A stretch of 64,000 bases of DNA from Rhizaria sp. SCN 62-66. Lineage: Eukaryota. The position numbers were made by a program, and so were the translations under genes. The stretch covers positions 62,001-126,000 of the forward strand of contig MEDY01000069.1 in NCBI GenBank assembly GCA_001724265.1. The letters run 5' to 3'. The notes below the pieces were generated by a model. The model searched no databases. It saw nothing but the letters and a program-made list of their open reading frames with translations, and had not been told where the DNA came from. Shown piece after piece: positions 17,786-61,918 of this stretch (its first letter is position 1; each line of letters begins with the position of its first letter).

Positions 17786-20700
17786 ATGGACACAATCCTT
17801 ACACCGTCTGTACTGGACGCTGAATACGTCCTTCAATGTCTCTACACGCCTTACTCCGTTGTTCGTAAACGCCTCGTTGTCTTCAAGGCTATCCGCGAGG
17901 TATGTGATTTACTGCGACCGCACTCACTACATAATTTGCTCTGTTATTATGGCACAATCTCCCTTTTCCCACTCTCACCACGTCCCCAAATACCCATGTC
18001 CACTGAACCTTCCTTTCCTGTCCGCTCTCTCTCTCGCACTTAGCTCATCCGCATGGTTGACGCCGGCGCCCCCGTATACGTCTACGGCAGCGGTCCTCGC
18101 TCTGTGGCGCTGCCCGGCGGCGACATCGACATCGGCGTGCTCACCCCATTCGCGCCCCAGACCTTCCTCGCAGCCTTGCAGCACACCATGTACCTCACCG
18201 CCGCCGGACAAGAGGCCACCAAGGAGGCCGCAGCCGACCGCGCCTGTGCCGCTTCACCAGCCTTCTTGCGCGCACCCTTTTTGCCGCAGCAATAGCAGCA
18301 GGTGCAGGGGCCAGCAACTCCCAACCGGGCCCTGGCCCTGGCACACGCCGCCAAAGCTGCCCCGCACGCGTCATCTTCATCCTCTTCATCGTCCGGCTTG
18401 AGCGCAGCTGCGGCCGGTCAGAACGGGCCCGCGGTGACCGTGGATGCTGACGGGGCCGTGACCGTCGCTGTGCCGCTTCCGGGAGGATCTGCTGGCAGTG
18501 GCGCTGGCAAGGCTGACACTGGCAAGGCTGCCCACAGTCACCGCTGCCCGCGCTGTTCGGGCCGCATCAAGCCCCCTTCTATTTCCGGCCTTGGTGTCGG
18601 GACTTGCTGTGAGCCGGAGACTGGGGCTGTGGCGGCCGCGGCACGGACGCTGCTGGACGGACTGGGCGTGCTGCCCTGGGCCGCCCCGCCACGGTTCAAA
18701 ACGCTCTCGGCAGCGCTGACGACCGCGATCACCAACACCTACGCCTCCACCGCCGCTGGAGCCGCTACAGCCACCGCCACGCTTGCGGTCGCCGGCGCGA
18801 CGCCTGTGGAGGGCGCGGTACTGCAGCCTCGACAGGTGCAACAGCTGCTGATGACGAACGCGCTGCTGGCGTTGCGCCGGTACCGGCTGACCCCGCAGCA
18901 GCACAAACAGGCCGCCCTTGGTATCCAGCCTAGCAGCAACAACAACAACATTAGCAGCAGCAACAATGCCCACGCGAAGCCTGTGTTGAGCCCGGAGGTT
19001 GCTGCCGCCGTTGCGGCGCTGCTGTCGCATTTGCAGGCGGCACCGGCAGGTCAGTCGTGTCATGATGAGAACCCAACCTCTTCGCTGACTGCGCCGATTA
19101 CTGTTGTGGCCGCACCTGCTGTGCCTGCTGTTGGTGGCCGGAACACGTCCGGTGCGAAGCTTTGTGGCCACGACCACGAGACCAAGTGCGACGGACACTT
19201 GGACGCTGATGACGGCAAGTGCAGCTGCAACTGCGCATGCACTACTAGCGACGCGAGTCTTGTCGTTGGCAACAGGAAAGCTGCCAAGAAGGACCGCGCC
19301 GCCGCAGATGCGCGTACTAGCGATGTCAACAGCGCCGGCGACTACGACTGCACTTGCGTTGTCAGCATTGCAGGCGGCTTACCTTGCAGCACGGACGCCG
19401 TGAACCACCGCGATTTCATGCACTGTCCCGCAGTCAGCCACGTGACGGTGCTAACGTCGTCCGAGGTCAAGCTGCTCAAGTGCCAAGTCGACGGCATTCC
19501 CGTCGACGTGTCGGTCAACACAATCGCCGGCGTCAGCGCGCTGTGCTTTCTGACACAGATCGAGGAGTGCATTGACGGCGTCACGCATGGTCCCATTGCG
19601 ACGAATACGCCTAGCTTGGCAAGTCCAGTCAGTGGCACCACAGGCGCTAACATCGACGCTCCCGTGACCGGCAACAATGACGACTTCCCCGCACTGTCCG
19701 CGGCGCCGCCGCAGCAGGCTGAAACCGGTAAGGGCAAGGGCAAGGGCAAGAATAAGCAGAACAGCAGCGCCAGTGCCTCCGCCAGCCACATCGCTGACTC
19801 AAGCCCCCGTGAGTCCGTCCCAGACGCGGCCTCCACAGCGGCGACGGCGGCTGCCGCGGCGTCACCAGTGCTGCCGAGGCACCTGCTGAAGCGCTCAGTA
19901 ATGCTCGTCAAGGCCTGGGCGCTCAAGGAGGCGCGGCTACTCGCGTCTAGACATTACCTGCTGTCGTCGTACGCCGTCGAGACAATGGTGATCTTCACCA
20001 TCAATCACTTCTACGCCGACTTGTCATACTGTTCGATTCCCTCGGCCGCGTCAACAGCGCCAGCACCAGCGCAGTCATCAACAAAGACTCCCCTCGACCC
20101 GCGCATGCTGCCGCTGTCCCCACTGTCGGTGTTCATTCGTTTTGTCGACATTTTCGCTACGTTCGACTTCTCACGCTTTGCAGTCTCGCTCGCCGGTCCG
20201 ATCCCGCTCAAGCCCCTCCCGGCCGCTGCCTACGCCTCTGCTTCCGCCTCTGTCTCTGGCCCGTCCGCGACTGAGCTTGCGACTGGTGCCTCACCGCTGC
20301 CCGGGGTCAGTCTCCACTCTCTCCGGCCCTACGACTTGACCTCCACAGCGGCCGCAATCGCCGCTGTCACTGCCACTACTAATACTAGCTCCACGGTGCT
20401 GTTGCCGTCGCGTGACGCCAACGCGCTTGACACTGCGGCCTCGTCGGGCTCGCTCTGGCTTGGCGTGCCGTACCCCACATATCACTATCTTTCCAGTAAC
20501 AATATCAACGATGACACTCCACGCTCAAGCAGCGCCACGAACGCTGCTTCGCATGTCCCCGTTCTTGGCCGTGCCAGTAGTGACTCCGAGGCCGCGCTGC
20601 CCTTCACGGCCCGCGCCGCCGCCGCACGCGCCCGCGGCGGCCCTCTGCTGTCCCAGCGCCAGCTGCAGGAGCTCATGTTTGGCAACGGCGGCCACGAGGC

Positions 20701-22731
20701 CAGCACGACGGTCGACCCTTTCACGGCCTCGGCGGCGGCGTCGGCGGCCGCGCACTCCGCGGTCTCGGCAGTCAACGCCGCGGCCGCACAGGCCGCCGCC
20801 GCCACCGCCGCAGCTGCTACTGCAGGCTCTAGTCCGACTGCGACAGGCGAGTTGAAGCGCTCCGGCAGTGAGGGCCACAACGGCGACTCCCCGGCGGCCA
20901 CGACACCGGTGGCCCAGGACCCCGCCTCTCAGACTGCAGCAGCTGCCGCCGTCGCAGCCGCCCCCAAGGCTGCGGCGGCGCTGTCCGGCAAGCAGTCGTT
21001 CGCCGAGGTCGTGTCAGACTCGCTGCACAAGGCACGGCCGCGCTCCGTCTCGGCCTCGGCCTCTGTCTCGACCTCCGCTGGCACTGGCACTGGCGTGGGC
21101 GCCGCGGGTGTTGTCGCCTCATGCCAGTCGACGTCTCCAGTCGCCGTGAACGCGAGTCTTGCGACCGCCACAGCAACGGCACCTAACGCCACACCTGCGG
21201 CCCCTGTGGCTGCGTCGGCGCGCCCGCCTCTGGCCAGCTCCCCCGACTCCTCGTCTTCGTCCTCGTTCTCGTCCTCGTCTTCGTCCGCCACTGCGGCGGC
21301 ACCCAGCGCCGGTGCGCGGCCGCCGGCGAGCGCGAGCGCACGGCTGAGCGGGAGCGTCACGACCCCCGCGGCCGCGCCTGCCCCGGTCCCGGCCCAGTCG
21401 GATCCGCTGGCGCTGCCCGCGGTGCCAACTCTGCTCGTGCCCTCGGCACCCATGCGCCGCTCGCTCACGCTCTTCGAGCACCACTATGCGGCCGCCACCG
21501 CCGCAGCCGCCGCGGCCGCGGCCGCCGCCGCCGCCGCAGCAGCTGCCGCAGCCGCTTCGGTGTCGCAGGCCGACTCTGTGTCCACCGGCACGCCCGCAAC
21601 CGCGGCTGCGGGCGCCGCTGCGACTGCGGCTTCGGCAGCCGGCGCTGCTGCGAGCGTTGCTGGTGCGATCCCGGCGGGCCAAGGCCGGCCGCCGACCCCC
21701 GCGCTGAGCACCGCGGTGGCGCCGTCCGTGGCCGGCGTGCCCGTGAGCGCGATGATGCTCAGCGGCGGCGCGGGCGAGCTGCCCCTTGTCGTCGTCGACC
21801 CGCTCGACGCCGGGAATAACATCGCGCGCGCGGTGTCGGCCTCGAGTGCGCTCCGCATCACCGCGGCGCTCGCGCGGGCGCGGGCCATCGTCGGCGAGGT
21901 CTGGGCCTCCGCTGTCTCTGTCCTCAACGCGAGCAGCAGTGACTGCAGCGCTGTTGCTGCGCTTCCCGAGGCAGATGCAGAGACTGCTGCCGAGGCCGAG
22001 GCCGCTGCCGTGCGCGCGCGTGCCGCCTTTGTCTCCGGCGTGGGCACCCGGCTCTTCAACAACACGCTCTCCAGCTACGACTCTGCGAACCCCGTCACGG
22101 GCGCCGCCGTCACCGCCGCTGCCGCCGCGGCCGCCGTTGCCGCTCCCGCTGACGCCGCGCGCGCCACGGCGGGCACGCGCCCGTCGCTGGACGCGTGGAC
22201 GTGGTCCGTGCCGTCCGCCGTGCTCGTCGAGCAGCGCGCGCGGCTGCGCGAAACGAGCAGCGCCGTCGCGGCGCTGCGGCCGACGCTGTACAACCACTAC
22301 CACAGCTACCACGCGTACATCGCCCACGCCAACGCCGCGGCCAACAACCAGGCGCGGCTGCAAGTGCAGGCGCAGGCGCAGGCGCTCTCGATGCAGCAGC
22401 AGGCGCAGTTCGCGCAGCAGCAACAGCAGCTTGCGCAGCAGGGCGGGGCGTCCCAGTCGCCGCAGCAGCCGCAGCTGTCGTTCCAGCCGCTGCCGGTGCC
22501 GCCGCAGCCCGGGCTGGTGCCCGCGCTGCCGCCGTCGTTCCCGCTGCACATCGCACCGCACGCGGTGCCCGCGCACAGCCACGCCGCGCTGGTGGCGCTG
22601 GCTGCGCACTACGGCATTTTCGTCCCGACGTTGGCCTACGCGGCGATGCAGCAGCAGCAGCAGTCGTCGCACACTGGCGGCGCGGGCCTCGGCGGCGACG
22701 GAGCGCTGCCACCCGGCGTGATGCTCATGTC

Positions 22732-22770
<39 letters not shown>

Positions 22771-23649
22771 GTCGCCGTTCGGCGCCGTGGTCTACGGCAA
22801 TAGCCCTAGCGGCATTCCACCGCCGCCCCAGTTCGCACCCCACGGCCACCCGCAGCAGCAGGCGCCGTTCGGCTGGCCGGCCCACGCCCACAGTCCCTTC
22901 GCTGCCCACAGTCAGTTCGCTGTCCATGGCCCCGCGTTCGGCCCCGGCGGCAGCCCCGGCGCACCCGGCGGCGGCGGCGGCGGCTACGGCTTTGTGGCCC
23001 ACGGCCTTCCGCACCCGCACAGCGGTCCGCACGGTGGGGGCCCGTTGCACATGCACATGTCCGCGGCCGGGCCGCCAGTGTATGGCGGCGGCGGCGCCGT
23101 GGCGATGGGCGGCATTCCCGGCTTGGCGGGGCTGCCGCCGATGCTGCCGCACGGCAACGCGCTTTACTTCACCTCCCACCAGCAGCCATATCAAGCACAG
23201 TCGCAGTCGCATGGCCAGGCTCAGGGCCAGGGCCCGCACCGCAGTCGTGGCGGCTCCCCGATGCTCGCACCCACCGGCCCCGGCGCCGGGGGCGGCAGCG
23301 CCAGCGGCGGTGTGCCCCCGCCTCTGCAGTATGGCCGCCAGACGCCGCCGCTGCTCGCCGCGCGCGCGCCGCTGCCGCCGTCGGGGCTCGCCGCCAGCAC
23401 CAGCGCCAGCGCGAACGCCAACGCTGCCGCGAGCGTGACTGTGCACAGCGGCGCCGGCGTTTTTGCGTCGTCGTCATCGTCATCCTCGCCGTCGTCTCCA
23501 CTGCAGCCGTCGCCGCATGCGGTCGCGCATGCAACCGCGACCACGGGCGCTGCGCCGGCGCCGGTGGCGCAGTCGTTCGCGTCCGTGGTCGCGGCGGCGA
23601 GCGGCTCGCCACAACTGCAGGCGCTCAACGTGGCCGTGCCCCCGCCGTT

Positions 23650-23713
<64 letters not shown>

Positions 23714-26700
23714 CAGTTGAAGCAGCAAGGTCCCAGTGTGCCAGCGGGCGCTGCGTCCCCGACGACTGGCCGCAAGGGCAAGAGCAAGACCAACACCGCC
23801 GCCGTCGCCACTGCGTCTCATGTCGGCAGCGCCCTCCCGGCTGCTGTCATTGCAACCGGCGCTGTTGCTGAGGCCGGCAGCGCTGACCCGCTGCTCAGCG
23901 GCTCTGTTGGTGATTTGCCCCACTCACGATCGCTGCCCAACGCCGCTGCAGGCTCCGCGGCCGCCACTGCCGCCGCTGCCGTTGCTGCGCCTGCGCTCAC
24001 TGCGCCCTCGACGACCGCGTCGTTGTCGGGCAACGGGTCCATCAGCAGCACCACGGGTGAGAACAACAGCACACACAGTGCGCACACGGGTGCTCCGACA
24101 ATGACCGCTGCGTCTATCATTGCGCAGTCGCTGCCGATGCGCCGCTCTAACCTTGCGCTGCTTTCCGTCGTCTCTGGCGCAGCCCCCGCCCCGAGCCCTG
24201 CTGCCGCTGCGACTGGAGCTGGAGCTGGAGCTGGGTCCGCCTCTGTCCCGGCCACCGCGGCCGCGTCGTCCGTGACCGCGCTCTCGCACGCGCAGTCGAC
24301 GTCCAGCCCGACCACCACCGAGGCCGACGCCAGCGCGGCCGGGTCGGCGTCTGCGTCTGCGTCCACGACCGCGCCGGCGCTTCCCGTGACCGCCAGTGCT
24401 GCCACAAGCCAAGCCTCCACCTCTGGCGCTGGCTCTGGCACTGGCTCTAGCAGCACTCTGGTCGCGACCGCAGCGCCCTTCACGGCCTCACGCAGCAGCT
24501 TCAGCACCACGCCCATTCTCGCTGCATTGCACAACATCAACAGCTCTGGAGGCGGCCGCAACGGCGGCGGCGGTGGCGGCAGCGCGCGCGGCAGCTTCCA
24601 GGCCCTTAACAGCAGCGGCGTCAGCGGCGTCAGCGGCGGGGGCGGCGGCGGCAGTGGGACGCCGCTGGGCCCATCCCCGCGCGTGTCGCTGTCCACGCCC
24701 GTCGCCGGCCCCATGCCGATGCACCACGGCCCTCACGGCGGCCCTCACGGCGGCCCTGTGCTGGCCACCGGCGGGCTCGGGCTTGGGCTCAGCGTCATGG
24801 TCCCCGCGCTTCCCTTCCCCGCCCTCGCGACGTACGGCGCGACTGCGCACAATGCGAACCTCCAGCCTCAGTCCCAGGCTCAGTCTCAGACCGGAGTCGA
24901 GGGCGGCCGCACCGCGCCGTTGTCGCCGGTGTCGCAGTGGCTGTCGCAGGCCGTGGGCGTGGACGACAGCGCCGTGACCGCGCTGGCGGGCGTGCTACAG
25001 GCGGCGCACTGGGAGCAGCAGTGGGCCGACGCAGTGCTGCAGCATCAGCACCAGCAGCAGCACCAGATGCAGTATTTCCACCACTACCACCAGCACCACC
25101 ACGGCCACGGACACGGACACGGACACCACCACTACCGCAGTAAGCACAACAACAATAACAACAGCGGTGCTGCGTCAGGCGGCAACGCCAGCGGTGCCAC
25201 TGATGGTGGTGGCGGCGGCGGCGGCTACGGCAGAAACGCGCACTCTGGCGGCGGGGGCGGCAACGCGCAGCAGCCCGGGAGCAGCCAGTCGCGGCGCAGC
25301 GCGAACCGTGCAAGTCAGCATGCTCAGCAGGCTCAGTTCAACCACGGCTTTGCGAGCAATCCCAGCTACAACAACAACAACAACAACAACACTGCAAACG
25401 CTCAGAGTGGTGGTGCGAGTGCGAACACAACGTCCCATCCTGTACCTGCTGCCTCTGCGGCCAGTGCCGCTGTCGCTGCGCCCGCTGAGAGTGTGGCTCA
25501 AACGGCTCCTTCGTCATCTTCGGCTGCCAATGCTGCCATTACAGCGAGCGGCGCCGCCGCTGCCCCGGCGGCTGATGCAACTGTGAGCACTGTTAACGCC
25601 TCGAAGACGACCAAAACTGCTGAGAACACTGAGAACAGCAGTAGCGCTGCGCCTAGTGCAGACGCGACTGCAGCTGCAACATCTACTGTCGAGACTTCGA
25701 CTGCGAGCGCGGCTGAGGGTAGTGCGAGCAACGATGCTAAGGCTGCGCCTGTGCCAGCCTTAGATGCTGCTTCGTTGGCGGTTGATGTTGCTACTTCAGC
25801 CTCTCGTGTGAGCTCAAAGGGCACAAAGAGCAAGAATGCTTCCGGCAAGCAGACACCAAAAACTCTACCACAGCAACAACAACAGCAGCAACCGCAACAA
25901 CAACAGCAGAAGACCGGCGCCACCAACGCTGCCAAGAAGAACAAGAACGCTGTCGCCATCAACATGAGCTCCAACGCCAACGCCAACGCCGCCGCGGCCG
26001 CCGCGACTGCGATCGCGGCGGCGAGCACGGTCGCCGCAGGCATTTCCGCCGCCACTGCCCAGGCCTCCGCCCACGGTCACCTCGCCGGCCGCGGCTCGTT
26101 CTCGCAGCCGCACCACAGCGGCGCCTTCTTTGCGCAGCCGTACCAGCAGCAACAGCAGCAGTACCAGGCGTTCCCGCCGCAGACCGCGCAGTTCCAGCCG
26201 CCGTTCGCGCCCCCGCCCGGCCCGTACCACTACCAGGCCGTGTTCGTGCCATACGCGGGCCAGCAGCCGTCACAAGCGCCGTCGCAGGCGCCGTCGCAAG
26301 CGCATCTGTCGTACCAGCAGCAGCCGCAGACACCGGCGCAGGCGCATGTGCAAGCGATCTCGCAGCTGCACATGCAGAACCAGCTGCAGCAGCAACAACA
26401 GCTGGCGCTTGCACAACAGCAACAGCAGCAGCAGCAGCCGCCTCCTGCTGCTAATCAGAACTCGCAAAACGCATCACAACCTCAACCTCACCCTCAGTCC
26501 CAGAGCCAGATGCCGCCGCAGACTCAAGGACCGGTTGCTGGTGGCAGTGCGCCGCCCTCCGTGACCGTCTCCCAGGCTGACGCGGCCGCGCAGCTGCTTG
26601 GCCACGCACAAGGGAGCCAGCCGGGGTCGATGTCACTGCCATTGTCGTCGACCGCGTCCGGGCCTCCGTCGTCACAGCCCCAGTCGCGGCCGCAGTCGCA

Positions 26701-29071
26701 GGCGCCGTCGCGCGTCCAGTCGCGCACGCAGTCCCAGGCGCAGACGCGGCCGCAGTCGCGCTCGCAGCAACAGCAGCAGCAGTCTCCGCAGCAGCCGCAG
26801 TTGCAGTCGCAGTCGCACGCGCAGGTTCTGGTGACGGCGCCGTTTCCCGGCGTCTCGGGCTCGGTGACCGCTGGCGCGACGCCGCAGTACTCGCCGCTGT
26901 CGGGTGTGTCGCGCGCGCACACGCCGCAGGCCGCCGGCGCCGCGGCCGCGCCCGCCGTGCCCGCCAGCGTGGCCGCCAGCGTAGCCGCCAGCGTAGCCGC
27001 CACCGTGGCCGCTCTGAACGTCGCGCTGGCTGCGTCGACTGCGCCCGCGTCGTCGCCGCCCACGCCCGTGACCGCGTCGCTGACCGCGGGCACCGCGGGG
27101 AGGTCGGCTGCAGACGCCGCCACAGGATCCGCCACAGGTTCTCCGCAGCCGCCGCAGCAGTCTGGGCTGACGGGACAGGGCTCGAGCAGTCGGGTGAACA
27201 CGGCCACGCCCCTTATTGGGCTTGCGAGCGCGACCGCGAACGAGCCCAGAGCCGCTTCTGCGACTACTGAGACTGCTGTATCATCTGCGCAGATCACTGG
27301 CAACGCGAAGAGCAACAGCAAGACTGCGCGTCACACCCGCACTGTCACCAGCCCAGCCGCGCCCGGCACGGCCGCCGCGTTCGCTGAGTCGAGCATCGCG
27401 CCCAGCAGCGCGCGCGGCAGCGTGAACAGAGCGCGCGGCGGCTCGCTCGCGCTCGCCGGCAGCGAGGCCGACGCGGCTACCGCGGGGCCGGGCACGGTCT
27501 CGGGCACGGTGTCGGGCCGGAGTACGCCGCAGCAGCAGTTCCGCACTGGCCCCGCGCAGAGCCAGCGTAACCGCCAGCAGATACAACAGCAGTATCAGCA
27601 ACAGCAGTATCAGCAGCAGCAGCAAGGGCACTACTCGCCGCAGCAGCCGTACGCGCCGCCACTGTCCGCCACTGGTTTCTATGGCCCTTACGGGTCTCCT
27701 TCGTCGCCGCAGCAGCCGCTGTCTCCGCTGGCATCGCAGCAGCAGCCGCAGGCGCCTGCGCCTGCGCATGCGCCTGCGCAGTACGCTTACGCCTACGCAC
27801 CGGGACCGGGCTACACGTACGTCCCTGTCTTCACTGCCCACGGTCACCCGGCCGCCCACGGTCTCCCCGCAGGTCCCGGCGGCGTCGCGGCAGCCCCAGT
27901 CTTCGCGCCCCCAGCCGCGCTCCCGGCCAGCCACTCTGCCCACGTTTCCTCGGGCCCCGGCGCCGCCGCCCACGGTCACGGCCACGGCCACCACCTGTCG
28001 CTGGCTCCGGCGCCGGGGCAGCACGGGCAGCACGGGCAGGCGGTTTGGGTGCCGGCCAGCGCCAGCGCGGGCCACCCGTCGTCGTTGCCTCCGCCGCAGC
28101 CGCACTCGCCGCCGCAGCAGCAGGTGGTGCACGTGCCCGCGGGCAGCCAGCTTGTGAGTCACGAAGGCATCGTGTACCTCGTGCCTGCGGGCGCTCATGT
28201 CGTCGCCGCTGCGCCCGCGTCAGTGCCAGCGCCCGCGTCTGTGCCTGCGCCCGCGCCTGCACCTGCGCACGCCGGCATCAGCAACAACAGCAGCGGCAGC
28301 AGCACCGAGTACTCGCACGCTGGCGCCGCGGGCGCGGCCGCAACTGCGGCTACGACTCCGCAACACCAGTACCCAGCGCAGCCGTCGCACCTCCCGTATC
28401 CAATGTCTCAGTACCTCCCCGGCGGCCAAGCGCCACCGCCGCCGACGCAGGGCCCGGCGCTGGGCCAGCCCTACGCGCAAAGGCCCTACTTGCAAGGGCC
28501 CGGGTACGGCTACCCGCACGGTCAAGCGTATGGCTACGGCCAAGCGCACAGCCACGGCCAGCCGGGCCAGCCGCCGCGCGGCAACAACCGCCAGCGGAAC
28601 AACAACAACAACAACAGCAACCATAACAAGCACGGTCGCCATGGCCAAAACAGCGCAGCCGCTGATGTGGCCGGCGCTGAGGCCGCTGCGGGCGAGAAGT
28701 CGCCCGCGCCCGCCGGCGAGCAGCCCCACGGCCAGCAGCAGTGGGGCGCGGACATGCTGGGGGGCTCGCTGCCGGCGCATTACGCGGCCGCTGTGGCGAA
28801 CGGCACGATCACGGTCAACGTCAGCAGCAACAGCGGCGTGCTCTACTCGCCCGTGCCGCAGGTGCAGCCGCAGCTGCAGTACGGCGCGCCGCAGCAGCCG
28901 TACTACGTGCCGCACCAGCAGCACCAGGGACGTTCACACCATCATCAGCATGGACAACGCCAAAGTCATAGCCAGGGCCAGGGCCATGGCCAGGGCCAAG
29001 GCCTGGGACAGGGACAGGGACAGCAACGTCAACGTCAGCCTCGGCAGAATGTCAACAAACCGAGTCAGTGA
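17786..29071 (+). CDS. Giant Pol-beta-superfamily nucleotidyltransferase (PAP/OAS1 substrate-binding-domain type), about 3713 aa; exons 17786-17899 and 18044-29071; in-frame TAG at 18293-18295
   Basis: Catalytic motif VYGSGPRSVALPGGDIDIGVL lies upstream of the TAG. Downstream in the same frame: EVKLLKCQVDGIPVDVSVN, LLKRSVMLVKAWALKEARLLASRHYLLSSYAVETMV, FDFSRFAVSLAGP and VVDPLDAGNNIARAVS. Intron GTATGT...TAG at 17900-18043. TGA stop. Confidence 0.8.
23651..23710 (+). repeat. Coding CAG microsatellite: CAA(CAG)19, poly-Gln 20
   Basis: Directly visible uninterrupted CAG run inside the nucleotidyltransferase ORF. Confidence 0.9.
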
Positions 29072-29601: not shown

Positions 29602-31842
29602 ATGGTTGCGCCGTCCTTCACAGACTCGTCTAAGGACGTTGGCTGGTGGTGGAACCTCATTGTTCTTACTACCGTTATCATTGTGGTTCTTTTTGTCGGT
29701 GGCATGGTCTTCGAAAATGCGCCAGACTACGGTGTAAACCTCATGGAAGAGGACAGCTCCTCGTCTGTTCAGTCCATTGTCTTGCTCGATCATTCCAGCT
29801 ACGACGACGCCAAACGCGCTGCCCGCACGACGCCTAACGAGGATAACCAGCTGTACTCCCCTATTTCACACATGGAGCATGCGTAGCAGAGCGCCAAGCT
29901 GTTCAACTACACCTTCCCACCCTGGCCCGCGTCTGCTGCGCCTCACTCGCCGCCCGTCGCTGCGGCTCCGCAACAGCAACAGCAACAGCAACAGCAGGCG
30001 CAGCGCCCCCGTGCCCCCGCGGACTGCGCAGTTATTGTACAGCTTGCGTGCACCGAGCTCGGCCGTTATCTCACCGCGCAAGCGCCTCTCTGGTCTCTCG
30101 GCGTCGCCACCGCTCCTTTCGGCGTCATTCCGCCGCAGCACCGCGTCTTCTCCCCGAGCTTCGCAGTGGAGACCGTGCACTCGTACAGCATCGAGAACGT
30201 TGAGAACCGCAACGCATACTACCCATCGATCCCGCGCAACCCGGCGACGGACGCGCTGGTGGTCGCCAGGAGGCTCAGACTCACCGTGACGCTCGCCATC
30301 GCGCCGACTGCGACTGGCTTCGGATTCACGAAGAGTGGCAAGAGCACCAACAAACACAGTGGTGACGAGAGCAGCATTGAGAGGAACGGCGGTGACGCGA
30401 GTGCTGCTGTGGATCGCGATGCTGAGAACAGCACTGGCGACGACGGCAGCCAAGACGTTCGCACTGAGGCTCACCCAGATGCCGGCTCCGGCTCCGTCAG
30501 CGTGTCGTCCGTGCGCGCCGAGGCGATCGTGCAGTGCTCGTGGGACGGCGCCTGCCACGTGCACGGCGTGCTCTGGCGCTCGCCTTACCCGATTCCGCTG
30601 CGCCCGAGCCCGTCCCCGTTCTTCACGCCGCTTGCGCCCGCGCTGCCGGTCCCTGCGCACAGCTACGCACCGGACGCCCCCGTAGGGCTGGGCACGTTGC
30701 GCGTGATGAACGCGAACATCTGGAACTACAACCAGTGGCCCGCGCGGCGCCCGCTGCTCACGCAGGAGTTTTCACGCTGGCTGCCCGACGTGGTGCTGCT
30801 GCAGGAGGTCCGCGGGCGCCACACAGGCTTCCTCCGCTGGCGGTACCACCAGGCGCCGGCGCTGGCGGACGACTTCGCGCGCGTGGTCGGCGGGCCCGTG
30901 GGGTTCGTGTCCACGGCGACGGCGCAATTTGACGACGCGCACCCCGAGGAAGAGGGCGTGGCCATCCTCTCACGGCTGCCGATCCTCGACTACGGCTGGC
31001 TGGTGCTGAGTTCCAAGGGGTCGATCCACAGTGACGGGATGCCGCGGCGCGTGATCTGGGCCCACGTCGCGCTGCCCAGCGGCGACACGGTCATCGTTGC
31101 CACTGTGCACCTCACGCTCACGGCGCACGCGCGCGCGCGGCACTACGTGGAGATCGGGCAGTGGTGCGAAGACCTGCGCGCGGCCAAGGGCGGCGTGCCG
31201 CTGCTGCTGAGCGGTGACTTCAACGAGATCCTCTCGCGGCTTCCGGTGCACCCGTTCTTCAGTCGCGGTTTTGTCGACGCTGCGCAGCAGGTGTACGACG
31301 ACGAGGACGATGCGAGGGAAGCCGCTGCCTCCGCCGCTGCCGCTGCTGGTGACGGCGCTTTGGCCGGGACTGTGGGCGCGTCTGCTGAGTCGGAGTCGCT
31401 GACTGCGACCGCCAACACCAAGAGCGGCGACGGTGACAGCAACACCGCCGCGGCTGCTCCTGTGGCTGCCGTCGCTGGCTCTGACGCCGCCAAGGCCAAG
31501 AAGAAGCGCCGCCAGACCCCGTTCACGTTCCCCACCGACGCGCCGAGGAAGCTGATCGACCACATCTTCATCCACGGGCCCGCGCACGCCGTGGCGTACT
31601 CGATCGCGGGCGACAAGATGACCGGCACGATCTTCCCCTCGGACCACCTGTTTAACGTTGCGGACATTGACGTGGGCAAAGCTGAGGGGGTCAAGGAGGG
31701 CGGGTATGGAGCAGGGATCCCGCGGTGGCCTCGGCCGAGTGCCGCAACAGCAGCCGGTGGTGCCGGTGGTGGTCACGGTGCGGGGGCTAGCGAAGGAAAG
31801 GAGGAGGAGGAAGTCGGGGACTCGAAGCTCGATGAACTGTGA
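29602..31842 (+). CDS. Endonuclease/exonuclease/phosphatase (EEP) family protein with N-terminal membrane anchor, 746 aa if the in-frame TAG at 29884-29886 is decoded
   Basis: TM segment WWWNLIVLTTVIIVVLFVGGMVF. EEP motifs LRVMNANIW, PDVVLLQEV, GVAILSRLP, ATVHL, LSGDFNE, LIDHIF and PSDH. ORF-track pieces 29536-29886 and 30166-31842 share one frame with only the TAG between them. Ends KLDEL-TGA. Confidence 0.8.
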
Positions 31843-40579: not shown

Positions 40580-43003
40580 TCACTTGTTCTTGTCCGCCAC
40601 AAGCGCTTTCATGACAAGCTCCATGTGCTTCGGCAAAGGCGCCGTCACAGCCATCACCCCATCCCAGTCGCCGCCGCCCGCAGTCACCGCAGCGCCGGCC
40701 CGCGCAACCGCGGCCTTGACCCGCGCGCGGTCGGCCTCGGTGGCGACGCCCTCGAAGGCGGCAGTGAAGAGCGGGTGTTGGAACGCCATGCTGCGGCACG
40801 TCAAGTGCAACGTCGGTGGAGTGGCAAGCGCACGCGCTGACGCGCCTCGCGGGACAACCGTTGCCACTGCTGTAAGCGCGGAATCGGGCAGAATGGGGCC
40901 GCGCAGCAAGCGCGCGTTGCAAGTCCTGTCATTGCTACTGAGACGCGTGCTGTCGTTGTTGTTCGGCTGCTGTTGACTCTGTGTTGTGAGTGGAGTGTAG
41001 CCCTCCGTGATCAAGTCTTCGCCCAGCAGCGGCGAAGACAGCACGGCCCCACAGTGACGGCGTAGCTGGTGTTTGCGGCCCGTCACGGGCGACATCGCCA
41101 ACAGCGACAGCACAGGCGCTGACCGAGCTGGGTCAGCGCTGTCACTACTGGCTGCGGGAACGGTCAGAGTGGTTAGCTCGGTGAAAAGGCTGAGCGCTGT
41201 CAGGTGTTCTACAGCAGCCCCGTTCGTGCCACTCTTGCCACCGCGAGAGGTGAGGGCCTTAGTCTTGCTCTTGCTCGTGCTGTTGTGTGTGCTATGGAAA
41301 GCGTGCGCTGAGCCGGTGTCGGTCGTCGCATATGTTTCAATAGTGGTAACACTGTGGAATGCCGTCGCGTGTGTGCTTCTATTCATGGTCTGAGAACCGT
41401 GCTTAAGGGGCGATTGCGCGATTGACGCCTGAACCATGCGACTCAGCACCATAACATCATCATCAGCAGCATGATTGGCTGTCGTAGTTGCACGATTCAA
41501 AGTCACGCCAGACACCTTGTTCAACGCTGACAGAGAAGGCAGCGGTGCTGAAAGCGCCCAGTATAGCTTCTTAACTTGATACACGCCGTTATTGTCTCCA
41601 TCTTCGTCATTCATATGCCTGTCATTGCGATTAGCGTTAACATTTGTGTGGTGTTTGTTAGTCGTGGATTTCGTCGTAGCGTCAACGGCAGCCTTAGTCT
41701 TGGCTGCAAACTGGTCAGTTAGCGCCTTGGCCGCGAGCCGCGTCTTCGCCACAACCAATACACCTGATGTCGCTTTGTCAAGCCGGTGGACCAAACGGGG
41801 GCGCTCAAAGCAAGAATGCGCCCACAGGGGCAGTCCGGTGGCGGGGTGAGTCTCGGGCGCAGACTGTAGCTTTGACTCAGACTGCGACTCCAATGACTGG
41901 CGTGGTTGAGAGAGCATTGCAGGTGAGTGCATGGACACAGTGTGCAACGCAGCCAAATACGTGTCGATGTGGTTATTGCTGTTGTTATTCGAAGTATCCG
42001 CCAAGTGACCATGAGCGGGGTCCTGCTGGCTTAGAGACGCAGCAGTCCCCGCGTGCACCGCCATCCCCGGCGGTTTATCGAGCACTAGCACGTGCTCATC
42101 CTAATACAGCACCCACGGCAGCAGACGGCGCGTGAGGCCGACAGCGCGGGCGTATGGCACCGACTCGGCCACCTCGTAGCCTAGCGCCGCCGAGTCGCCG
42201 CCACTCGGGGCGGCAGCGCCAGGGGCGAGTGCAGGAGTCAGCGGGCTCGGGTGGCTAGACGAGCCACTGCTACTGTTCTGACTGCCAGGCGTAATTGTTG
42301 CAGTGTTCAAATCCGTCTGCGAGAGCAAGTTCGCGACTGTCGTCGCAAGCGCCGGTGCCGCAGCCGCTGCTGCAGTTGTCAGTGCCAGAGAGTTCGTGCC
42401 GGTATGGGGCGAGGGACTGTTAGGAGCGGTTGGAGAGAATGTGTCCGACAAAAGCACCTTCGCCACGAACAATGGCAGCACAACAACGTCGCCGTGAGCG
42501 AGCTTCGACGCGATCTTGACTTTGGAACCCAAGCCAGCACGTCCTGCGCTTGCGCTCTTGTTGCCGTTCTCAGGATATGCGGCAGCAGTCGTGATGAGTG
42601 AGACGTCGGCAAGTGTGAGTGCAGATTGCGGTGCCAACGGCATCATCTGTGGGTGTGACAGCGACAGTGACGTTGCGTCATGAAGCGGGATGGCGTCATG
42701 ATCATTGTTGCTGCTACTAACGGAGATACTCGTTCCAGCAACCGTGAGAAGTGGAATCGAGCTCACAGTCACTGAGCCACCTGGGGTGGCAACAGTTACT
42801 AACTCAAGTGCGCTCGTGGTATAACTAGGTACCATCCGCGATGCGTTAATGGGTGTAACAGCTGCAGGAATGAGTGTCACTTCATTGCGTTCGATTAGCT
42901 TCCAGATCGTGGGCATGTTAAGCGACGGCACTGCGGCCTTCAGGAAGGCATCGGCGCGCAGGGCGTGGTTGCGCGAAGATACGCGCAGGCCAAGTCGGTA
43001 CAT
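40580..43003 (-). CDS. RluA/RluC-family pseudouridine synthase with S4-like N-terminal domain, about 807 aa; in-frame TAG at 42101-42103
   Basis: S4-like LRADAFLKAAVPSLNMPTIWKLIERNEV...KVKIASKLAHGDVVVLP. Motif I VLY*DEHVLVLDKPPGMAVH, catalytic LVHRLDKATSGVLVVAK, then KKLYWAL, PVTGRKHQLRRH and LHLTCRSMAFQHP. The start codon is uncertain; 43003 is the first in-frame ATG. TGA stop. Confidence 0.87.
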
Positions 43004-46521: not shown

Positions 46522-49490
46522 ATGTCTGGTACGTTACCTCGCTCCCTTCACTGCTCTGCACCACCCTCAGCAACGCTAGATCACCTTGAACGCGATCAAC
46601 ACGCTTTTGCACACATAGACACTGACAGATAGATTGTTCCCCGCCTAACTGTACTATCTTTTGCATCTGTTTAGACACGCCCGAGGATGCGACGAGGGAC
46701 GTGACCAACACGGTCGCGTTCGCCTTCCTGGACGAGATGCTCTCCAAGGGCAAGCTCAGCCAGGAAACCGTCGACCTCTGCAAGGCAAACTACCGCAAAC
46801 TCCACGAGTCCGTCGTGACGTGCTTTGCCAACGAAAAGGCACTCATGGAGAAAGCCATGGAGCTGTCGACCGTGCTCGAAGAGGAGCGTAGCAAGATCGA
46901 GAGCAAGATTGGTTCGACCCACGACATGCACACCGACATCGAGCAGCTGCAGCGCGAAGCCGATGACGTTAACGCCGTCGTGCAGACCTTCCAGAACGAG
47001 GTCTCCGTGTGCCGCTTCGAGCTGGAGGAGCTGCAGGCGACGCGGCGTGAGAACGAGGTGCGCCGCGAGCAAAACGAAGTCAAGCAGCTGGCCGAGCTGC
47101 AGCCCATCAAAGAGCGGCTCACACAGCGGCTTGCCGAGCTAGAGGCTGACCTGCTGAAACAGAAGGAGGCCAAGGAGCGCGAGGACGAGAATACACAGGC
47201 GTACCTCACGCGCATCGCGGTGCAGACGGCCAAGATCACCGAAAACGAGCGGCTCAAGCTGAGCAAGCGCGGCGAGTACACTAAGGTCATGGGCGAGCCC
47301 GAGCGCATCCGGCAGCAGTGCGCGTCGCTCGAGATTGCGCAGAAGAAGCTCCAGACAGACGTGCGCGAGGCGACTGAGGCGGAGCGCCGCGCGGAGACCG
47401 ACTACCAGGCCGCCGAGCAGGCACGCATGGAGAAGGAGGCGCAATGCGACAAGGCCGTCGCAGCCAGCTCGCAGTTGCGCGCGACCGTGTTCAAGCTGCA
47501 GATGCACGCGGACGAGCTGCAGAGCAAAAAGCTGACCGAGCGCGAGCGCGCGGAGCGTGCCAAGGACAAGACGACTTTGTTGGAGGAAGAGCTGAAGCAG
47601 CTGCACGAGATGGGCAAGAAACACTTCGAGCAGATGTCCGAGTACCAGCGGCAGTACGAGCGCGCCAAGAAGGAGTACGAACGCCAGCGCCGCAAGCGCG
47701 ACTCGCTGCAAGCGCTGGTGCCGCCGCTCAAGGCGCAGCACGAGAGCATGATGCGACTCTGGAACGAGCTCGAGCGCGAGCTCAACGACAAGAAGAAGAT
47801 TCTCACCGAGATCAAGCTCGACGAAGAGCTGTTCACTGCACAGGTGCTTAACAAGGAGGACCTGGAGCGCGAGACCAAGGCGCTGCTGCAGGCCGTGTTG
47901 GCCGAGCGCCGCGATGTCGAGGCCAAGGTCGCGCAGGCCGACGCGCAGGAGAAGGCGCTGCTCAGCGACGTCGGCAACCTCTCGGCGCAGCGCGAGCGCA
48001 TGGCGCGCGAGGCGTCGCTGGCGATGGAGCAGTACGTCGAGGCGACCAAGGAGCTTAAGGCCAAGAACATGCTGCTCATGTCGCTCGACAAGCAGACGCT
48101 CGAGACGTATCAGCGCCTCAAGGTCACCTCAGTGCAGTACGAAAAAGTCAAGACGTCGCGCAATCGGTACCAGAGCCTATTGCAGGCCGCGGTGCAGACC
48201 GTAGCAGAGCTTAATGAGAAGATCAAGCTCCTACAGAGCGAGAGCGACACACTGCGTCAGGAAAGTGGCAGTATGAACCGCACTCTCTTGGACGAGGCGC
48301 GCACTCGCAGTAACCTCGTTGCCGGCCGCGACGCCGCGCGCATTGACCACAACAAGCTGAGCTCGATCCTGTCCGACGTGCAGGAGCAAGAGCGGCAGCA
48401 CGAGACGGAGATCGTCAAGCTCAACTCGATCGTGAACCAGACCGAGATCAAGATGCTCGAGCTGCGCCGCGACTACGCCGCTGCCGTGGACAACCGCAAC
48501 TTGACCGGCATCCAGCTCATCGACCGCAACGACGAGCTGTGTATCCTGTACGAGAAGTCAAACGTGCAGCAGGCCGTGCTGGGCAAAGGCGACGCCGAGC
48601 TGCGCCACAAGGACGAGCAGATCCGCGCTCTCAAGCTCGAGATTGCAGAACTGCGCCGCCGCGTCGAAAACGCGCGCTGCAGGCTCCCGTCGCTGCAGAT
48701 GTACGCGGCGTGCACGGCGACGCTGCAGCGCCTCGAGGACCAGCTGCGGCAGGAGCGCGAAATCACCAATGCGCTCACGGTCAAGCTGGAAGAGCCCGCG
48801 GAGACTGCGGGCGCGGCGGGTGGCGAAGGCTCGCGCTGCCGCTTGCTCAAGGGTTCGGACCCGTCGCCTGAGGTGCTCAACGCGCAGATCGCGATCCTGG
48901 GCGACCGGCTCAACGCGAAGAAAGAGCAGCTGCTGGAGCGCGAGCTCGTACTGGACGAGGTCACTTCCCTCAGCGACAAGCTCAAAGTGCAGGCCGCCGA
49001 GACGCGCGGCTCGACACTGGACCTCGCGAAGCGCATCAACGATTACCAGGCGCGCATTCGCACCATGACGCGCAAGATCATGGCCGTGATCTCCGAGCTG
49101 TCGATGTACCAGGCGACGGCGATGAAGCTCGAGCAGCAGCGCGCCGAGGCCGCCGCCGTGCTCGCCACGGCCAAGGAGCGTGCGGCCCAGGGCGTGCCGC
49201 CAACGGACGACGCAGAGTACGAGTGGTACCGCATCGAGCGCGACCGCGTGCGCCGCCAGGAGGCGCTCATGGAGCGTATGGCGAACGAGAAGACGATGAT
49301 GGCCAACGCGCAGCGCGCGGCGCAGGGCATCGCGGTCAAGACCACTGCCGAGGCGCGGCCTAACCACTACTTGCCCGAGGAGCTGGCGCTGCCCAAGCCC
49401 TACGGCGCGCTGGCGCCGTTCAAGCCGCAGCAGCAGGGCGCGACTATCCGCCACGTGCGCAAGCCAGAGCCACGCGAGCTGCAGCTCTAA
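46522..49490 (+). CDS. CCDC146: Coiled-coil domain-containing protein 146-like (flagellar), 940 aa, 2 exons (46522-46528, 46675-49490)
   Basis: Long coiled coil with RNLTGIQLIDRNDELCILYEK, RKIMAVISELSMYQA and TTAEARPNHYLP..LALPKPYGALAPFKP. A 7-nt first coding exon ATGTCTG|GTACGT supplies the missing ATG. TAA stop. Confidence 0.88.
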
Positions 49491-57930: not shown

Positions 57931-58944
57931 TCACGCCTTGTTAACAGCAGTAGTAGGAGCGGGCTTGAACTTGAGCGAGATGTCGAGCGCAGTCACCGAG
58001 TGCGTCAGCTGGCCGGAGCTGACAAAGTCCACGTTAGTCTTGGCAATCTCGCCCACAGTCTCGAGCATCACGTTGCCGGACACCTCGGTCTCCATCTCGC
58101 GGCCCTTGCTCACGGTCCCTGCGGAAATTTTAGCTGCCTGGTCCTTGAGCACGAGCTCCTGCGCCTGCGCAATGAGCGACGTGTCGATGCCAGTGGTCTT
58201 GCCGCTGCTGCCGTCCTTGACGAGCTTGGTCATGTTGTCGAACATGATACGCGTGACACCCAGGTGCTGCACGGCGAGCGCCTCAGTCACCTCTGCCAGA
58301 GAGCCCGTCTCGACCTCGATGGCGATGTTGCGCTCACGCAGCACGGGGTCCGCCTGCAGGAACGCATGGGTGTTCTCCACGGCCTGCGTGATGCCGCCCG
58401 CGGCCTCGATGTGGTTGTCCTTGATCATGACCATGTCGTACAGCCCGACGCGGTGGTTGCACCCGCCGCCGAGACGCACAGCGAGCTTATCAATCATGCG
58501 CAGACCGGGGACCGTCTTGCGCGTGTCGAGGATGCGGGTGCGCGAACCAGCGGCTGCGATGGCGTCCACGTACGCGCGCGTCAGCGTCGCAATGCCCGAC
58601 ATGCGCTGCATGAAGTTGAGCGCGGTCCGCTCGGCGATGAGGATGCCGCGCGAGAGGCCGACGGCGGTGCCGATGATGTCGCCCATGGCCACGCGGTCGC
58701 CGTCGGACTTGCTCCAGGTCACCACGATCGACGGGTCAACGCGGCGGAAAACCTCGGAAACGACGGCAAGACCAGCAACGACGCCGGAGGCCTTGGCAAC
58801 GAAGTAGGCGTCCGAGTGTGCGTCGGCAGGGATGGTGGCGTTGGCCGAGACATCGCCAGTCGCCACATCCTCGGCCAGAGCGGTCTCGATCGCGCGAGTG
58901 ATCTGCTCAGACTCGCTGACAAGGGGGAAAGTAAGCTCAGACAT
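57931..58944 (-). CDS. QPRT: Nicotinate-nucleotide pyrophosphorylase (quinolinate phosphoribosyltransferase), 337 aa
   Basis: Motifs ALAEDVATGDVS, AERTALNFMQRMSGIAT, ILDTRKTVPGLR, NHRVGLYDMVMIKDNHI, IEVE, EVSGNV and LTHSVTALDISL. Confidence 0.96.
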   Translation of the reverse strand: MSELTFPLVSESEQITRAIETALAEDVATGDVSANATIPADAHSDAYFVAKASGVVAGLAVVSEVFRRVDPSIVVTWSKSDGDRVAMGDIIGTAVGLSRGILIAERTALNFMQRMSGIATLTRAYVDAIAAAGSRTRILDTRKTVPGLRMIDKLAVRLGGGCNHRVGLYDMVMIKDNHIEAAGGITQAVENTHAFLQADPVLRERNIAIEVETGSLAEVTEALAVQHLGVTRIMFDNMTKLVKDGSSGKTTGIDTSLIAQAQELVLKDQAAKISAGTVSKGREMETEVSGNVMLETVGEIAKTNVDFVSSGQLTHSVTALDISLKFKPAPTTAVNKA

Positions 58945-59316
58945 TGTGCTTGGTAGTCTGGGTGGCGTTAGAGTGTGAGCGAAAGTGAGGGTATGGGGCC
59001 GTGAGAAGGGGGGTCCAGCAAGGGGCGATTCGAGCGACATGCATTTGAGAGGGAAAGAAAAGTGAATTGATTGCGTGAATGGATCCGATACTTGAGCGCC
59101 CTGGTTGATATGATATACATTTGAGTGTTTGAACTATTCTCCCAATTTTGCACGAGCTCATCTAGCGGAAGATGTTGCTGAAATGCCTCCTTTGTTCAAC
59201 GTGGGCTTCCTCCCAAGATTCACGCTGCCTTTCCGTTTGTGGTCGCATCAAATGTCCCTCGTCCCACTCACCTCACACTCTCATTTCGCGTCCACTTGCT
59301 TCCACAACCCGTAAAA

Positions 59317-59800
59317 ATGATTCGCCTCCTTGTCGTCATTCTCGCCATACTCCTCAGTACGTCCCCAACGCAATATACATCTTGATCTTCCGTTTACCAA
59401 CGTAGCACCGATCCCTCGCTCATATCTCCGTTTCTCTCTCTGTTCCGCGTTCCGCATCTCAACCCCACCAGCCGTCTCCGCCGAGCAGATGAACTGTGTC
59501 TACGACCCTGTCAAGGCCAAGCAGCAGGTCCAGAACATCTGGACCAAGCTCCAGGCCATGAACACGCGCATGTCCACACTCACGGGCGACGCCCTCACCC
59601 GCGAGTCCATCACCGCGGCCCAGACCGAGTACCTCACCTTCCCCATTACCTACCAGATCAACTGGGAGATCATCGACGTCAAGCCCGAGGACGCGCAAAA
59701 GGTCGCCGACTCGCTGCGCGACAAGGTCCGCGAGGCCGGTGCCACGCTCGGCTCCAACAAGCACATTCCGCGCCTCTTCAACGCCGAAGAAGAGGATTAA
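59317..59800 (+). CDS. Small secreted hypothetical protein, 122 aa, 2 exons (59317-59356, 59472-59800)
   Basis: Splicing GTACGT...CAG yields the signal peptide MIRLLVVILAILLTVSA followed by EQMNCVYDP. Very strong C/G-ending codon bias. TAA stop. Confidence 0.75.
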
Positions 59801-60223
59801 GCAAGCTCTGAGCAGACCATTGTACACGCGCTGCTGGGCACATGGTGTTTTTTCGTGTACTGTCAATGGATATGGCGTACTCCTCTGCACAGCTATAATA
59901 AAACTATAATTCCTAAACATGACATGTAGAAACTCAAAAGCTTGTACAAATGTGAAGTAACAGGCGGAAGCAAACATAAGTTGGAGCGAGAAACTAAAGA
60001 TACTTGGCTTGTATGATGTCATCAATACACAAAGCTTTGAAAAGAAATAAAACGAAAATAACAAACTGTCTAATTTCACAAACATATCTACTCACAAAGA
60101 ACCAACACAAACTCGCCCTGATCACAAAGCAGCGCTCACCCGGTGTATTCGCCTTCTGTCATGTGCGTGCGCGTGAAGTCAATGTTTGTCACTGTGCACG
60201 CGCGGTATGATATAACAGTGCGC

Positions 60224-61918
60224 TTACTCGTTCTGGCCCTCGGGGCGCATGGCGGGGAAGAGCAGGACCTCCTTGATCGAGTCGGAGTTGGTCAGGAACA
60301 TGGTCATGCGGTCAATGCCCATACCCCAGCCGCCAGTCGGGGGCAGGCCGAACTCAAGTGCCTGGATGAAGCCCTCGTCAAGGCCGGGGACCTCGTCGTC
60401 GCCGGCGGCCTTAGCCTTCATCTGCTCGGCGAAACGCTCGCGCTGAACGTGGGGGTTGTTAAGCTCGGTGTAGGCGTTGCAGACCTCCTTCTCGAGCACA
60501 AAGAGCTCGAAGCGCTCAGTGAGGCCGGGGATCGAGCGGTGCTGCTTCGCCAGGGGCGACATGATCTCGGGGTGATCCATGATGAAGCAGGGGTTGGAGC
60601 ACTGCACCTCGAGGTACTCGCCGACGAGCTTGTCGAGCAGGCGCGCAGTCGTGCGGGGTGCCTCGCACTTGACGTTGTGCTGCTTGCACAGGTTGTCGAG
60701 GAACGCGTTGGCCTCGTCCGACTCAAGAGGGAACGGGATCTTGACGTTAAGCGCCTCCTCGAGACCGGAGATCATGGAGATGCGCTTGAACGGCGGGGTG
60801 AAGTCGACCTCGACGGGGGTCTCCTTGCCGTAGGGCGTGTACTGGATCTTGTAGGTGCCGTGGATCGACTTGACCATGCCCGACACCATGCGCTCAGTCG
60901 CCTCGATGAGGTCATGGTAGTCGGCGTACGCCCAGTAGAACTAACACGTCGTGAACTCAGGGTTGTGCGTCATGTCGATGCCCTCGTTGCGGAACTGGCG
61001 GCCGATCTCGTAGACGCGGTCGAGCCCGCCAACAACGAGCTTCTTGTGGTAGAGCTCGGGGGCGATGCGCATGAACATGTCCTGCTTGAGCGAGTTGTGG
61101 TGCGTCGTGAAGGGCTTCGCGGTCGCGCCGCCGACCTCGACGGCCATCATGGGCGTCTCGACCTCGAGGAAGCCGCGCTCATCGAGGAAGCGGCGGATGT
61201 AGTTGATGATCTTAGAGCGGACGGCGAAGATCTCACGCGTCTTGGGGTTGAGCATGAGGTCGAGGTAGCGCTGGCGGAAGCGGACCTCCTGATCCTTGAG
61301 GCCGCGGAACTTGTCCGGCATCATGTGCAGGCAAGGGGTGAGCAGCACCATCTCGCGGGGGTAGATGGACAGCTCGCCCTTGCGGGTACGGCCGACGTAG
61401 CCGCGGACGCCGACAATGTCGCCGCGGTGGAGCACGGCATGAATGTCCCAGTTCTTCTCGGCCGAGCCCTCCTCGGCGACGACCTGGAGCGTCTCGCCGT
61501 CGCCCTGGACCTGGTAGAAGATTAGCTTCTTGCCCGCAGCGCGCTGCAGGTGAATGCGGCCCGCGACGGAGACCTCGATGGTGGTGTCGACGGCACCGGC
61601 CTCGATGGCGTCGAACTGCACGCGGAACTGCGGGATCGACATGGTGACGTTGAACTTGTGCGGGTACACGGCGTAGCCAGAAGCCTTGGAGTACTCCTCG
61701 AGCTGCTTCACGCGGGACGCGAAGTAGTCGGCGGCGTTGCCCTCGGAGACGACGGTGGTGACGGCCTTCTCGGGGGCAGCGGCGGCGCGCGTGGCGGCCT
61801 TCTCGGCGCGCGCGGCGGCCTGAGCCTCCTGCTTCTGCAGGCGCTTAAGGGCGTTCTTGGAGAGCGCCTGGCCATCGCCCTCGGGGGCAGGCACGGGGGT
61901 AGGGTCCTTATCAGCCAT
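60224..61918 (-). CDS. KARS1: Lysine--tRNA ligase (class II, eukaryotic cytosolic type), 564 aa; in-frame TAG at 60941-60943 (codon 326)
   Basis: Motifs [91 protein letters not shown] and [15 protein letters not shown]. The two ORF-track fragments are one frame. TAA stop. Confidence 0.95.

Follow-up and report, generated by a model that had tools for sequence, protein, structure and literature searches.

The window analysed here (the whole stretch of 64,000 nucleotides, G000:C69:62001-126000, from an assembly of 34.9 Mb in 714 contigs) carries a gene for an RluC-like pseudouridine synthase in which a TAG codon lies in frame within the first conserved motif of the family, and the question raised by this locus is whether UAG is read as an amino acid in this organism and, if so, as which one. 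We consider it very probable that UAG mainly encodes Glu, at a very low frequency, and that UAA and UGA are stops, in the nuclear code of a sainouroid-like rhizarian. This meaning of UAG, which the first-pass annotation had already proposed, is the best supported one, mostly because of evidence lying outside the RluC-like site: the in-frame TAG of a lysyl-tRNA synthetase (LysRS) gene, the TAG column of the release factor eRF1, a Glu-type tRNA(CUA) and a census of stop codons. The features discussed are collected in Table 1.

Table 1. Positions of the genes, codons and domains discussed (window coordinates unless a contig is named).
Feature	Position	Strand	Basis or remark
RluC-like (RluA family) pseudouridine synthase gene	40580..43003	minus	ATG 43003 to TGA 40580, TAG as residue
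In-frame TAG in motif I, VLY*DEHVLVLDKPPG	42101..42103	minus	codon 301; column E 67/118
Motif II region with HRLD	41696..41809	minus	120-homologue profile, E 8.2e-20; Pfam
Weak S4-like N-terminal stretch	42872..42985	minus	120-homologue profile, conditional E 0.0009
Cytosolic-type LysRS, 564 aa	60224..61918	minus	TAG as residue, TAA end; Pfam, homologues
In-frame TAG of LysRS (human E339)	60941..60943	minus	invariant Glu column
TAA, terminal stop of CFAP58/CCDC146-like gene	49488..49490	plus	UAA still stop
Probable in-frame TAG 5' of Exo_endo_phos domain	29884..29886	plus	outside any Pfam match
Probable in-frame TAG in Gln run PQQ*QQV	18293..18295	plus	opens 3591-codon frame; example of Gln-rich context
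eRF1 with in-frame TAG	G000:C63:103370-103699 (L032)		single eRF1 gene
tRNA, anticodon CUA, tRNA-Glu body	G000:C84:76009-76081	minus	ARAGORN

The RluC-like gene and its TAG codon

With TAG taken as a residue, a single frame gives a product of 807 aa from the first ATG. The codons quoted by the first-pass annotation, which gave no strand, are present on the minus strand, where PWVLY*DEHVLVLDKP occupies 42118..42071 and the PPG that follows terminates at 42065. The frame is matched by PF00849 (PseudoU_synth_2, E 1.2e-17 in Pfam) and among NCBIfam models it fits rluA_subfam best (E 4.6e-23), followed by RluC (E 2.3e-15), with scores that long insertions keep far under the cut-offs. Using a profile of 120 homologues, motif I was matched without gaps over the TAG (conditional E 2.2e-11) and the motifs of the RluA family were found in the expected order on either side of it, C-terminal motifs included, so that motif I and the HRLD of motif II, the Asp of which we take to be the catalytic residue, stand on one chain. 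The order of motif I, HRLD and TGRxHQLR is the same as in the RluC/RluA family (TIGR00005, PF00849), whereas the protein differs in its 807 aa with long insertions of low complexity and in falling below all NCBIfam cut-offs. A single frame containing HRLD was thus recovered as first described; the S4-like domain that this frame was said to join to HRLD is weakly supported, as the profile match is weak and Pfam gave no S4 domain at E<=0.001. If UAG encodes Glu, this would be an ordinary intact gene with Glu301.

At the column of the TAG, 118 of the 120 homologues could be anchored; 67 of them have E, 35 R, 6 K, 5 Q, 2 S, 1 L and two others a different residue, in agreement with the earlier expectation of Glu as the commonest residue and Gln in some members, Arg being second. 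The TIGR00005 model scores Glu at 66.1 bits and Gln at 63.9, and three of six NCBIfam models (RluA, TruC and TIGR01621) place Gln above Glu. Taken alone, the RluC TAG is a weak witness that modestly favours Glu.

It is scarcely credible that the in-frame TAGs as a whole result from assembly errors (G>T damage), mark pseudogenes or splice acceptors, or are edited in RNA. Splicing had been named beforehand as one way in which this codon could be lost, and such an event appears unlikely here: the TAG can hardly be a splice acceptor, because the 150 nt 5' of it have 73% GC (five introns of this genome have 34-52%), because none of the 11 frame-keeping GT..AG candidates around it has a donor starting with GTA, and because the VLY just upstream agrees with motif I. 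The site is thus without intron features. In favour of an artefact, the contig pieces of other studies near this TAG begin, among those listed, at 42166 and 42197. The A>C change needed for GAG does not occur in the DNA contig X3 over 20 kb, of which the pieces displayed do not show cover of 42103.

UAG inside conserved genes and the residue at its columns

The TAG of the cytosolic-type LysRS gene falls in a column where all 120 homologues have Glu and none has Gln, and corresponds by offset to E278 of E. coli LysU, which we take to be a lysine-binding residue; two relatives have GAG at this codon. The gene is the sole cytosolic-type LysRS among the 8 tRNA-synt_2 matches found, the other LysRS being 34% identical. 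Its TAG is unchanged in X3, a contig of study P2 (60560-61769), and in X5, a 1.9-kb contig of study P4 (60011-61932) with 0 differences. The X5 run was flagged as probably DNA, yet its contigs omit two GT-AG introns and we read them as spliced RNA. For LysRS, an artefact is contradicted by this identity in the DNA of a second study and the spliced-RNA contigs of a third. A further contig, X7, spans the TAG with 3 differences, one of them displayed.

Both X4 and X7 have many differences in LysRS, mostly G>A, at 60440-61244 of the window, which suggests a second strain or a close species in activated sludge, where swaps between TAG and GAG might be seen. In a relative with 80% LysRS identity (L180:217-3570), LysRS adjoins quinolinate phosphoribosyltransferase, as at 57931-61918 of the window, and both genes keep the same TAA and TGA stops. 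No TAG was seen in the LysRS of relatives (80 loci fetched, 5 read), a sample with too little sequence to tell the code of these relatives. On the minus strand of L185, from a more distant relative, the first long frame has SDDED, a TAG, four codons and a TGA, and this TAG may be either a terminal stop or a Glu within an acidic run.

The census covered 864,851 non-redundant bases of 34.9 million (2.5%), partly picked for holding TAG. Twenty-five domain matches contained TAG only, and 24 of them were inspected (C390 being the remaining one): 13 are exonic and 11, which were dropped, are splice acceptors or intronic, so that artefacts of this kind are common. By contrast, 16 matches contained TAA or TGA, and each of the 10 inspected is intronic. 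UAG is thus found in frame within conserved genes and, for LysRS, within an expressed one. According to a strict codon model, a coding-like frame goes on after 13/27 TAG, 1/68 TAA and 1/50 TGA, and the median run to the next TAA or TGA is 218 codons after TAG, 21.5 after TAA and 15 after TGA. Among the 14 TAGs without continuation, 5 have no TAA or TGA within 25 codons and the 9 others, all inspected, comprise one exonic TAG before an intron, one intronic, four off-frame or antisense and three in short frames without Met.

UAA is still a stop here, and the commonest one, a codon on which the first-pass annotation was silent; TAA ends the LysRS, eRF1, GluRS and ubiquitin genes as well as the CFAP58/CCDC146-like gene of the window. 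No stop was found inside the matches to AAA (22), ABC_tran (20), WD40 (149) and GluRS/GlnRS (4). TAA or TGA as sense codons found no support, the 4 best candidates being without a Pfam match across the codon.

No other sense codon is as rare as UAG, with 46 of 155,419 codons against 7,104 GAA/GAG, or about 0.6% of Glu codons, and 46 is an overestimate since it includes some splice acceptors and since part of the loci were selected because they contain TAG. This rarity, far under the 6.5-31.8% of the codon family that UAG represents in ciliates with UAG-only changes (PMC11687900), would fit a UAG that continues to terminate some genes, through dual meaning, a strong natural suppressor on the standard code or an unfinished reassignment. 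We regard such a partial stop as highly improbable: none of the 27 TAG cases in the 864,851 bases is a clean gene end, the purine bias at +4 seen for TAA (61/68) and TGA (37/50) is absent for TAG (13/27), and the essential LysRS and eRF1 genes bear the codon in mid-domain.

As for the residue, the TAG of eRF1 lies at E107, where 117 homologues have E (106), D (10), V (1) and no Q. In a gene of Ubc6/J1 type, searched with Q in place of the TAG, the column has D (82), E (10), N (10), S (10) and at most one Q among 121 sequences anchored of 150, the position being D in yeast Ubc6 and S in human J2; in Suv3 it is D in human. Summed over 10 exonic sites, the Pfam scores are E 794.4, Q 790.2, K 789.1, S 783.6, Y 774.8, L 771.2 and W 768.6 bits, and an 11th site (UCH) passed with Leu only. 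Glu leads Gln by 4.2 bits, of which LysRS supplies 2.7, and Q or K equals or exceeds E at 5 of the 10 sites; none of the 12 sites scored is a conserved-Gln column. A kinase profile built from 18 of the organism's own paralogues placed the TAG sites at variable columns and was uninformative.

The slim margin between Glu and Gln in Pfam, together with the preference of half of the NCBIfam models for Gln at the RluC site, would also fit a UAG read as Gln or as a mixture of Glu and Gln, through partial charging of tRNA(CUA) by GlnRS or first-position wobble of tRNA-Gln(CUG). So would the neighbourhood of the codon: Gln makes up 0.159 per neighbour at TAG (0.038 at GAG, 0.184 at CAG), 6 of 41 TAG sites have at least 2 Gln neighbours, and at a codon that is CAG in six of the organism's own ubiquitin copies, a ubiquitin-like copy shows TAG. 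We nevertheless think a Gln or mixed meaning improbable, given the absence or near absence of Gln at the LysRS, eRF1 and Ubc6/J1 columns and an E/D neighbour rate at TAG (0.104) that lies between those of Glu (0.154) and Gln (0.069) codons. With UAG as Glu, new UAGs would arise silently from GAG and often from CAG by C>T transitions tolerated in disordered tracts; we read the Gln-like context as the result of such transitions at unconstrained sites, and the intermediate E/D rate is what would be expected of sites coming from both GAG and CAG.

The ubiquitin-like domain with the in-frame TAG (L117:1492-2070, G000:C681) precedes a weak match to Peptidase_S74 that does not reach the cut-off, and the locus is possibly a capture of a ubiquitin gene by a mobile element or virus. 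The ubiquitin genes themselves (L135, L136, L118 and L119, on C3, C651, C168 and C182) are divergent monomers with an MSMQIF start and a GG-HPQ-stop end. No polyubiquitin was found among the loci read, and the junction test used for Cercozoa showed just monomers and a ribosomal fusion. The frame opened by the TAG in the Gln run of the window extends over 18296-29071, is of low complexity and has no Pfam match.

The putative decoder tRNA and the release factor

The tRNA search relied on an anticodon pattern that gave 43 hits against 39 in a control, which is chance level, so that ARAGORN, run on 33 of the 43, alone singled out the one tRNA with a CUA anticodon, in single copy; tRNAs bearing introns would escape such detection. 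In the same 33 hits no tRNA with a UUA anticodon was called. The tRNA(CUA) folds as a cloverleaf with a 3' T run and sits on C84 among genes of eukaryotic type; its minimum-energy fold is not significant (z -1.53) and does not recover the D and T arms. Its UCCC acceptor end and T stem are also those of the organism's own tRNA-Glu(CUC), and it carries U11-A24, U13-G22, A46, no base 47, U35 and A37, with A in place of C36. The latter change is necessary in any amber suppressor. Judged against the Glu identity set of E. coli, which includes U11-A24, U13-G22-A46, the lack of base 47 and A37 (PMC9976931), the tRNA has the features of a tRNA-Glu isotype. Its D-arm 19-mer occurs in 39 called tRNAs, of which 37 are tRNA-Glu, and among the 19 best matches in a phage collection all nine annotated ones are tRNA-Glu. 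Its loop has C32-A38, while the own Glu-CUC has C38; in an engineered human tRNA-Glu(CUA), C32-A38 is described as raising UAG suppression more than 20-fold (PMC12204705).

The Gln or mixed meaning of UAG has some ground in this tRNA also, as GlnRS reads U35, the tRNA has G73, and insertion of Gln is possible for bacterial amber suppressors that have both U35 and G73 (PMC9976931). Against this stand its Glu-type body, with 38-41/73 identities to the own tRNA-Gln, and the human tRNA-Glu(CUA), for which about 95% Glu, the remainder being Lys and Met, is given in PMC12204705. Identity to the own tRNA-Glu(CUC) is just 47/73, and one tRNA-Thr scores 48 in a gapped alignment.

The tRNA(CUA) is up to 54/73 identical to prokaryotic tRNA-Glu, the top match being on an actinobacterial plasmid, in a best-of-many comparison with sets that held no eukaryotic tRNAs; G73 and a D arm with C9 and GGCCCA are prokaryote-like. 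An exact prokaryotic source was found in neither of two genome scans nor in one viral scan. A prokaryotic origin is a lead. A wider scenario, which we hold to be doubtful, would see a young or incomplete reassignment in which a prokaryotic or phage tRNA-Glu was refitted with the host UCCC end and C32-A38 and inserts mostly Glu and some Gln, with two or more reassignments of UAG, to different residues, among sainouroids.

Returning to UAG as Glu, the gene for a tRNA(CUA) with a tRNA-Glu body is observed; the tRNA would be charged by GluRS and would pair with UAG and not with UAA, where the C:A mismatch would explain that only UAG changed meaning.

The eRF1 protein has T32S, G57S and L124M, each unique to it at columns invariant in 117 homologues, and also T58K. 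The Ser at position 32 stands in the GTS loop, where 117/117 homologues have Thr. The closest relative, which has Val at 107, shares T58K, M34V and several other changes and retains T32. These changes form the observed part of the mechanism on the side of termination. Thr32 bonds G3 of UAG in the account of PMC5304391, and in yeast eRF1 T32A is lethal and E107A reduces readthrough (PMC4381064). T32S would lower recognition of the third-position G in UAG, and we infer from the sequence that it abolishes recognition of this codon, so that tRNA(CUA) would win there. The conservative nature of T32S, the intact E55, NIKS, L69, S70, Y125, C127 and F131 (the YxCxxxF motif) and the single tRNA copy are nevertheless what a UAG still used in part as a stop would lead one to expect. 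With UAG read as Glu, and since the eRF1 gene holds UAG at E107, full-length eRF1 would depend on readthrough. This UAG could also act as a feedback or lock-in, because an eRF1 still able to stop at UAG would cut short its own synthesis. The existence of a matching tRNA, like that of an altered eRF1, argues against the TAGs being artefacts.

The organism and its place among known codes

The sequences point to a host that is a flagellated eukaryote, because the genes include CFAP97 and CFAP58 (Pfam) and dynein heavy chains and have GT-AG introns. DNA of this organism is also present in metagenomes from bioreactors, wastewater and sludge. Among named species, Guttulinopsis vulgaris has the nearest LysRS, and in a quick tree of 47 rows, with no other named rhizarian, the query falls in an 18-row clade with this species (SH-aLRT 100). 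Because of this clade, a placement in the Sainouroidea (Rhizaria) is likely, as judged from one gene.

To our knowledge, UAA and UAG nearly always change meaning jointly. The system described here works like those of the rhizarian sp. exLh and of Iotanema, in which UAG alone is reassigned, and differs from each by the residue. In exLh, a member of the Sainouroidea and so probably of the same clade, to judge by the place of Guttulinopsis in the LysRS tree, UAG is Leu with UAA and UGA as stops, and the decoding tRNA was predicted and not found (PMC5304391). By contrast, Leu is here 23 bits under Glu in the Pfam sum, the tRNA is of the short-arm Glu type, and eRF1 retains L69 and changes T32 where exLh has L69A (PMC5304391). 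The exLh code was rejected on all three counts, Leu columns, a Leu-type tRNA and L69A.

UAG alone is Gln in Iotanema spirale, Hartmannula sinica, Trochilia petrani and Protocruzia tuzeti (PMC5304391, PMC11687900). Iotanema has UAG uncoupled from UAA and an altered Thr32 of eRF1, as here, the change there being T32G (PMC5304391). Unlike in these codes, Glu and not Gln stands at the conserved columns here, and the share of UAG in its codon family, 18.5-31.8% in two UAG=Gln phyllopharyngeans (PMC11687900), exceeds the value found here. The Iotanema type of code was rejected for want of a conserved-Gln column among the 12 sites and for the Glu-type tRNA, whereas the Gln-rich contexts would fit partial Gln. 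Other UAG-only nuclear changes are to Leu in three phyllopharyngean MAGs and to Ser in Scotinosphaera (PMC11687900).

Glu is the meaning of UAG in the ciliate Oligohymenophorea sp. PL0344, where UAA is Lys and UGA the sole stop, and of both UAR codons in peritrich ciliates (PMC10553269) and in Blastocrithidia, where UGA is Trp and UAA is dual (PMC12153298). PL0344 resembles the present organism in that a tRNA-Glu-like tRNA(CUA) reads UAG, but it has 10 CUA tRNA genes instead of one and UAA is also sense (PMC10553269). In peritrichs and Blastocrithidia UAA is also Glu, whereas here it is the stop used most often, and none of the 33 pattern hits checked gave a UUA tRNA. Neither UAR=Glu nor the PL0344 code was retained, given the stop census and the genes ending in TAA.

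In the literature searched, which left out most subscription papers and supplements, we found no report of UAG as Glu with UAA and UGA as stops and no second sainouroid code. If true, Rhizaria would gain a second code, which would belong to the clade that already has UAG=Leu and would assign another residue, and the very low use of UAG may represent an early stage of codon capture. With a candidate tRNA and a Thr32-altered eRF1 in hand, the long-open question of UAG-only release becomes testable in yeast, and a putative natural and efficient tRNA-Glu(CUA) and a putative UAG-blind eRF1 would be relevant to work on suppressor tRNAs and code expansion. Essential genes of the organism are truncated by standard annotation.

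Other loci of the assembly have particularities of their own. The locus L121 (G000:C706:4459-8903), a candidate for the same organism, carries a divergent SSU rDNA interrupted by four group I introns (Rfam RF00028), the first of which includes an ORF of 180 codons with an end rich in His and Cys, resembling a homing endonuclease. Among the ARAGORN calls, tRNA-Pro(AGG) and one tRNA-Val(CAC) (L042 and L082) show a lengthened anticodon arm, and their T arms are unusual in a similar way. Lengths above 3000 codons are also reached by several kinase and WD40 frames of this genome.
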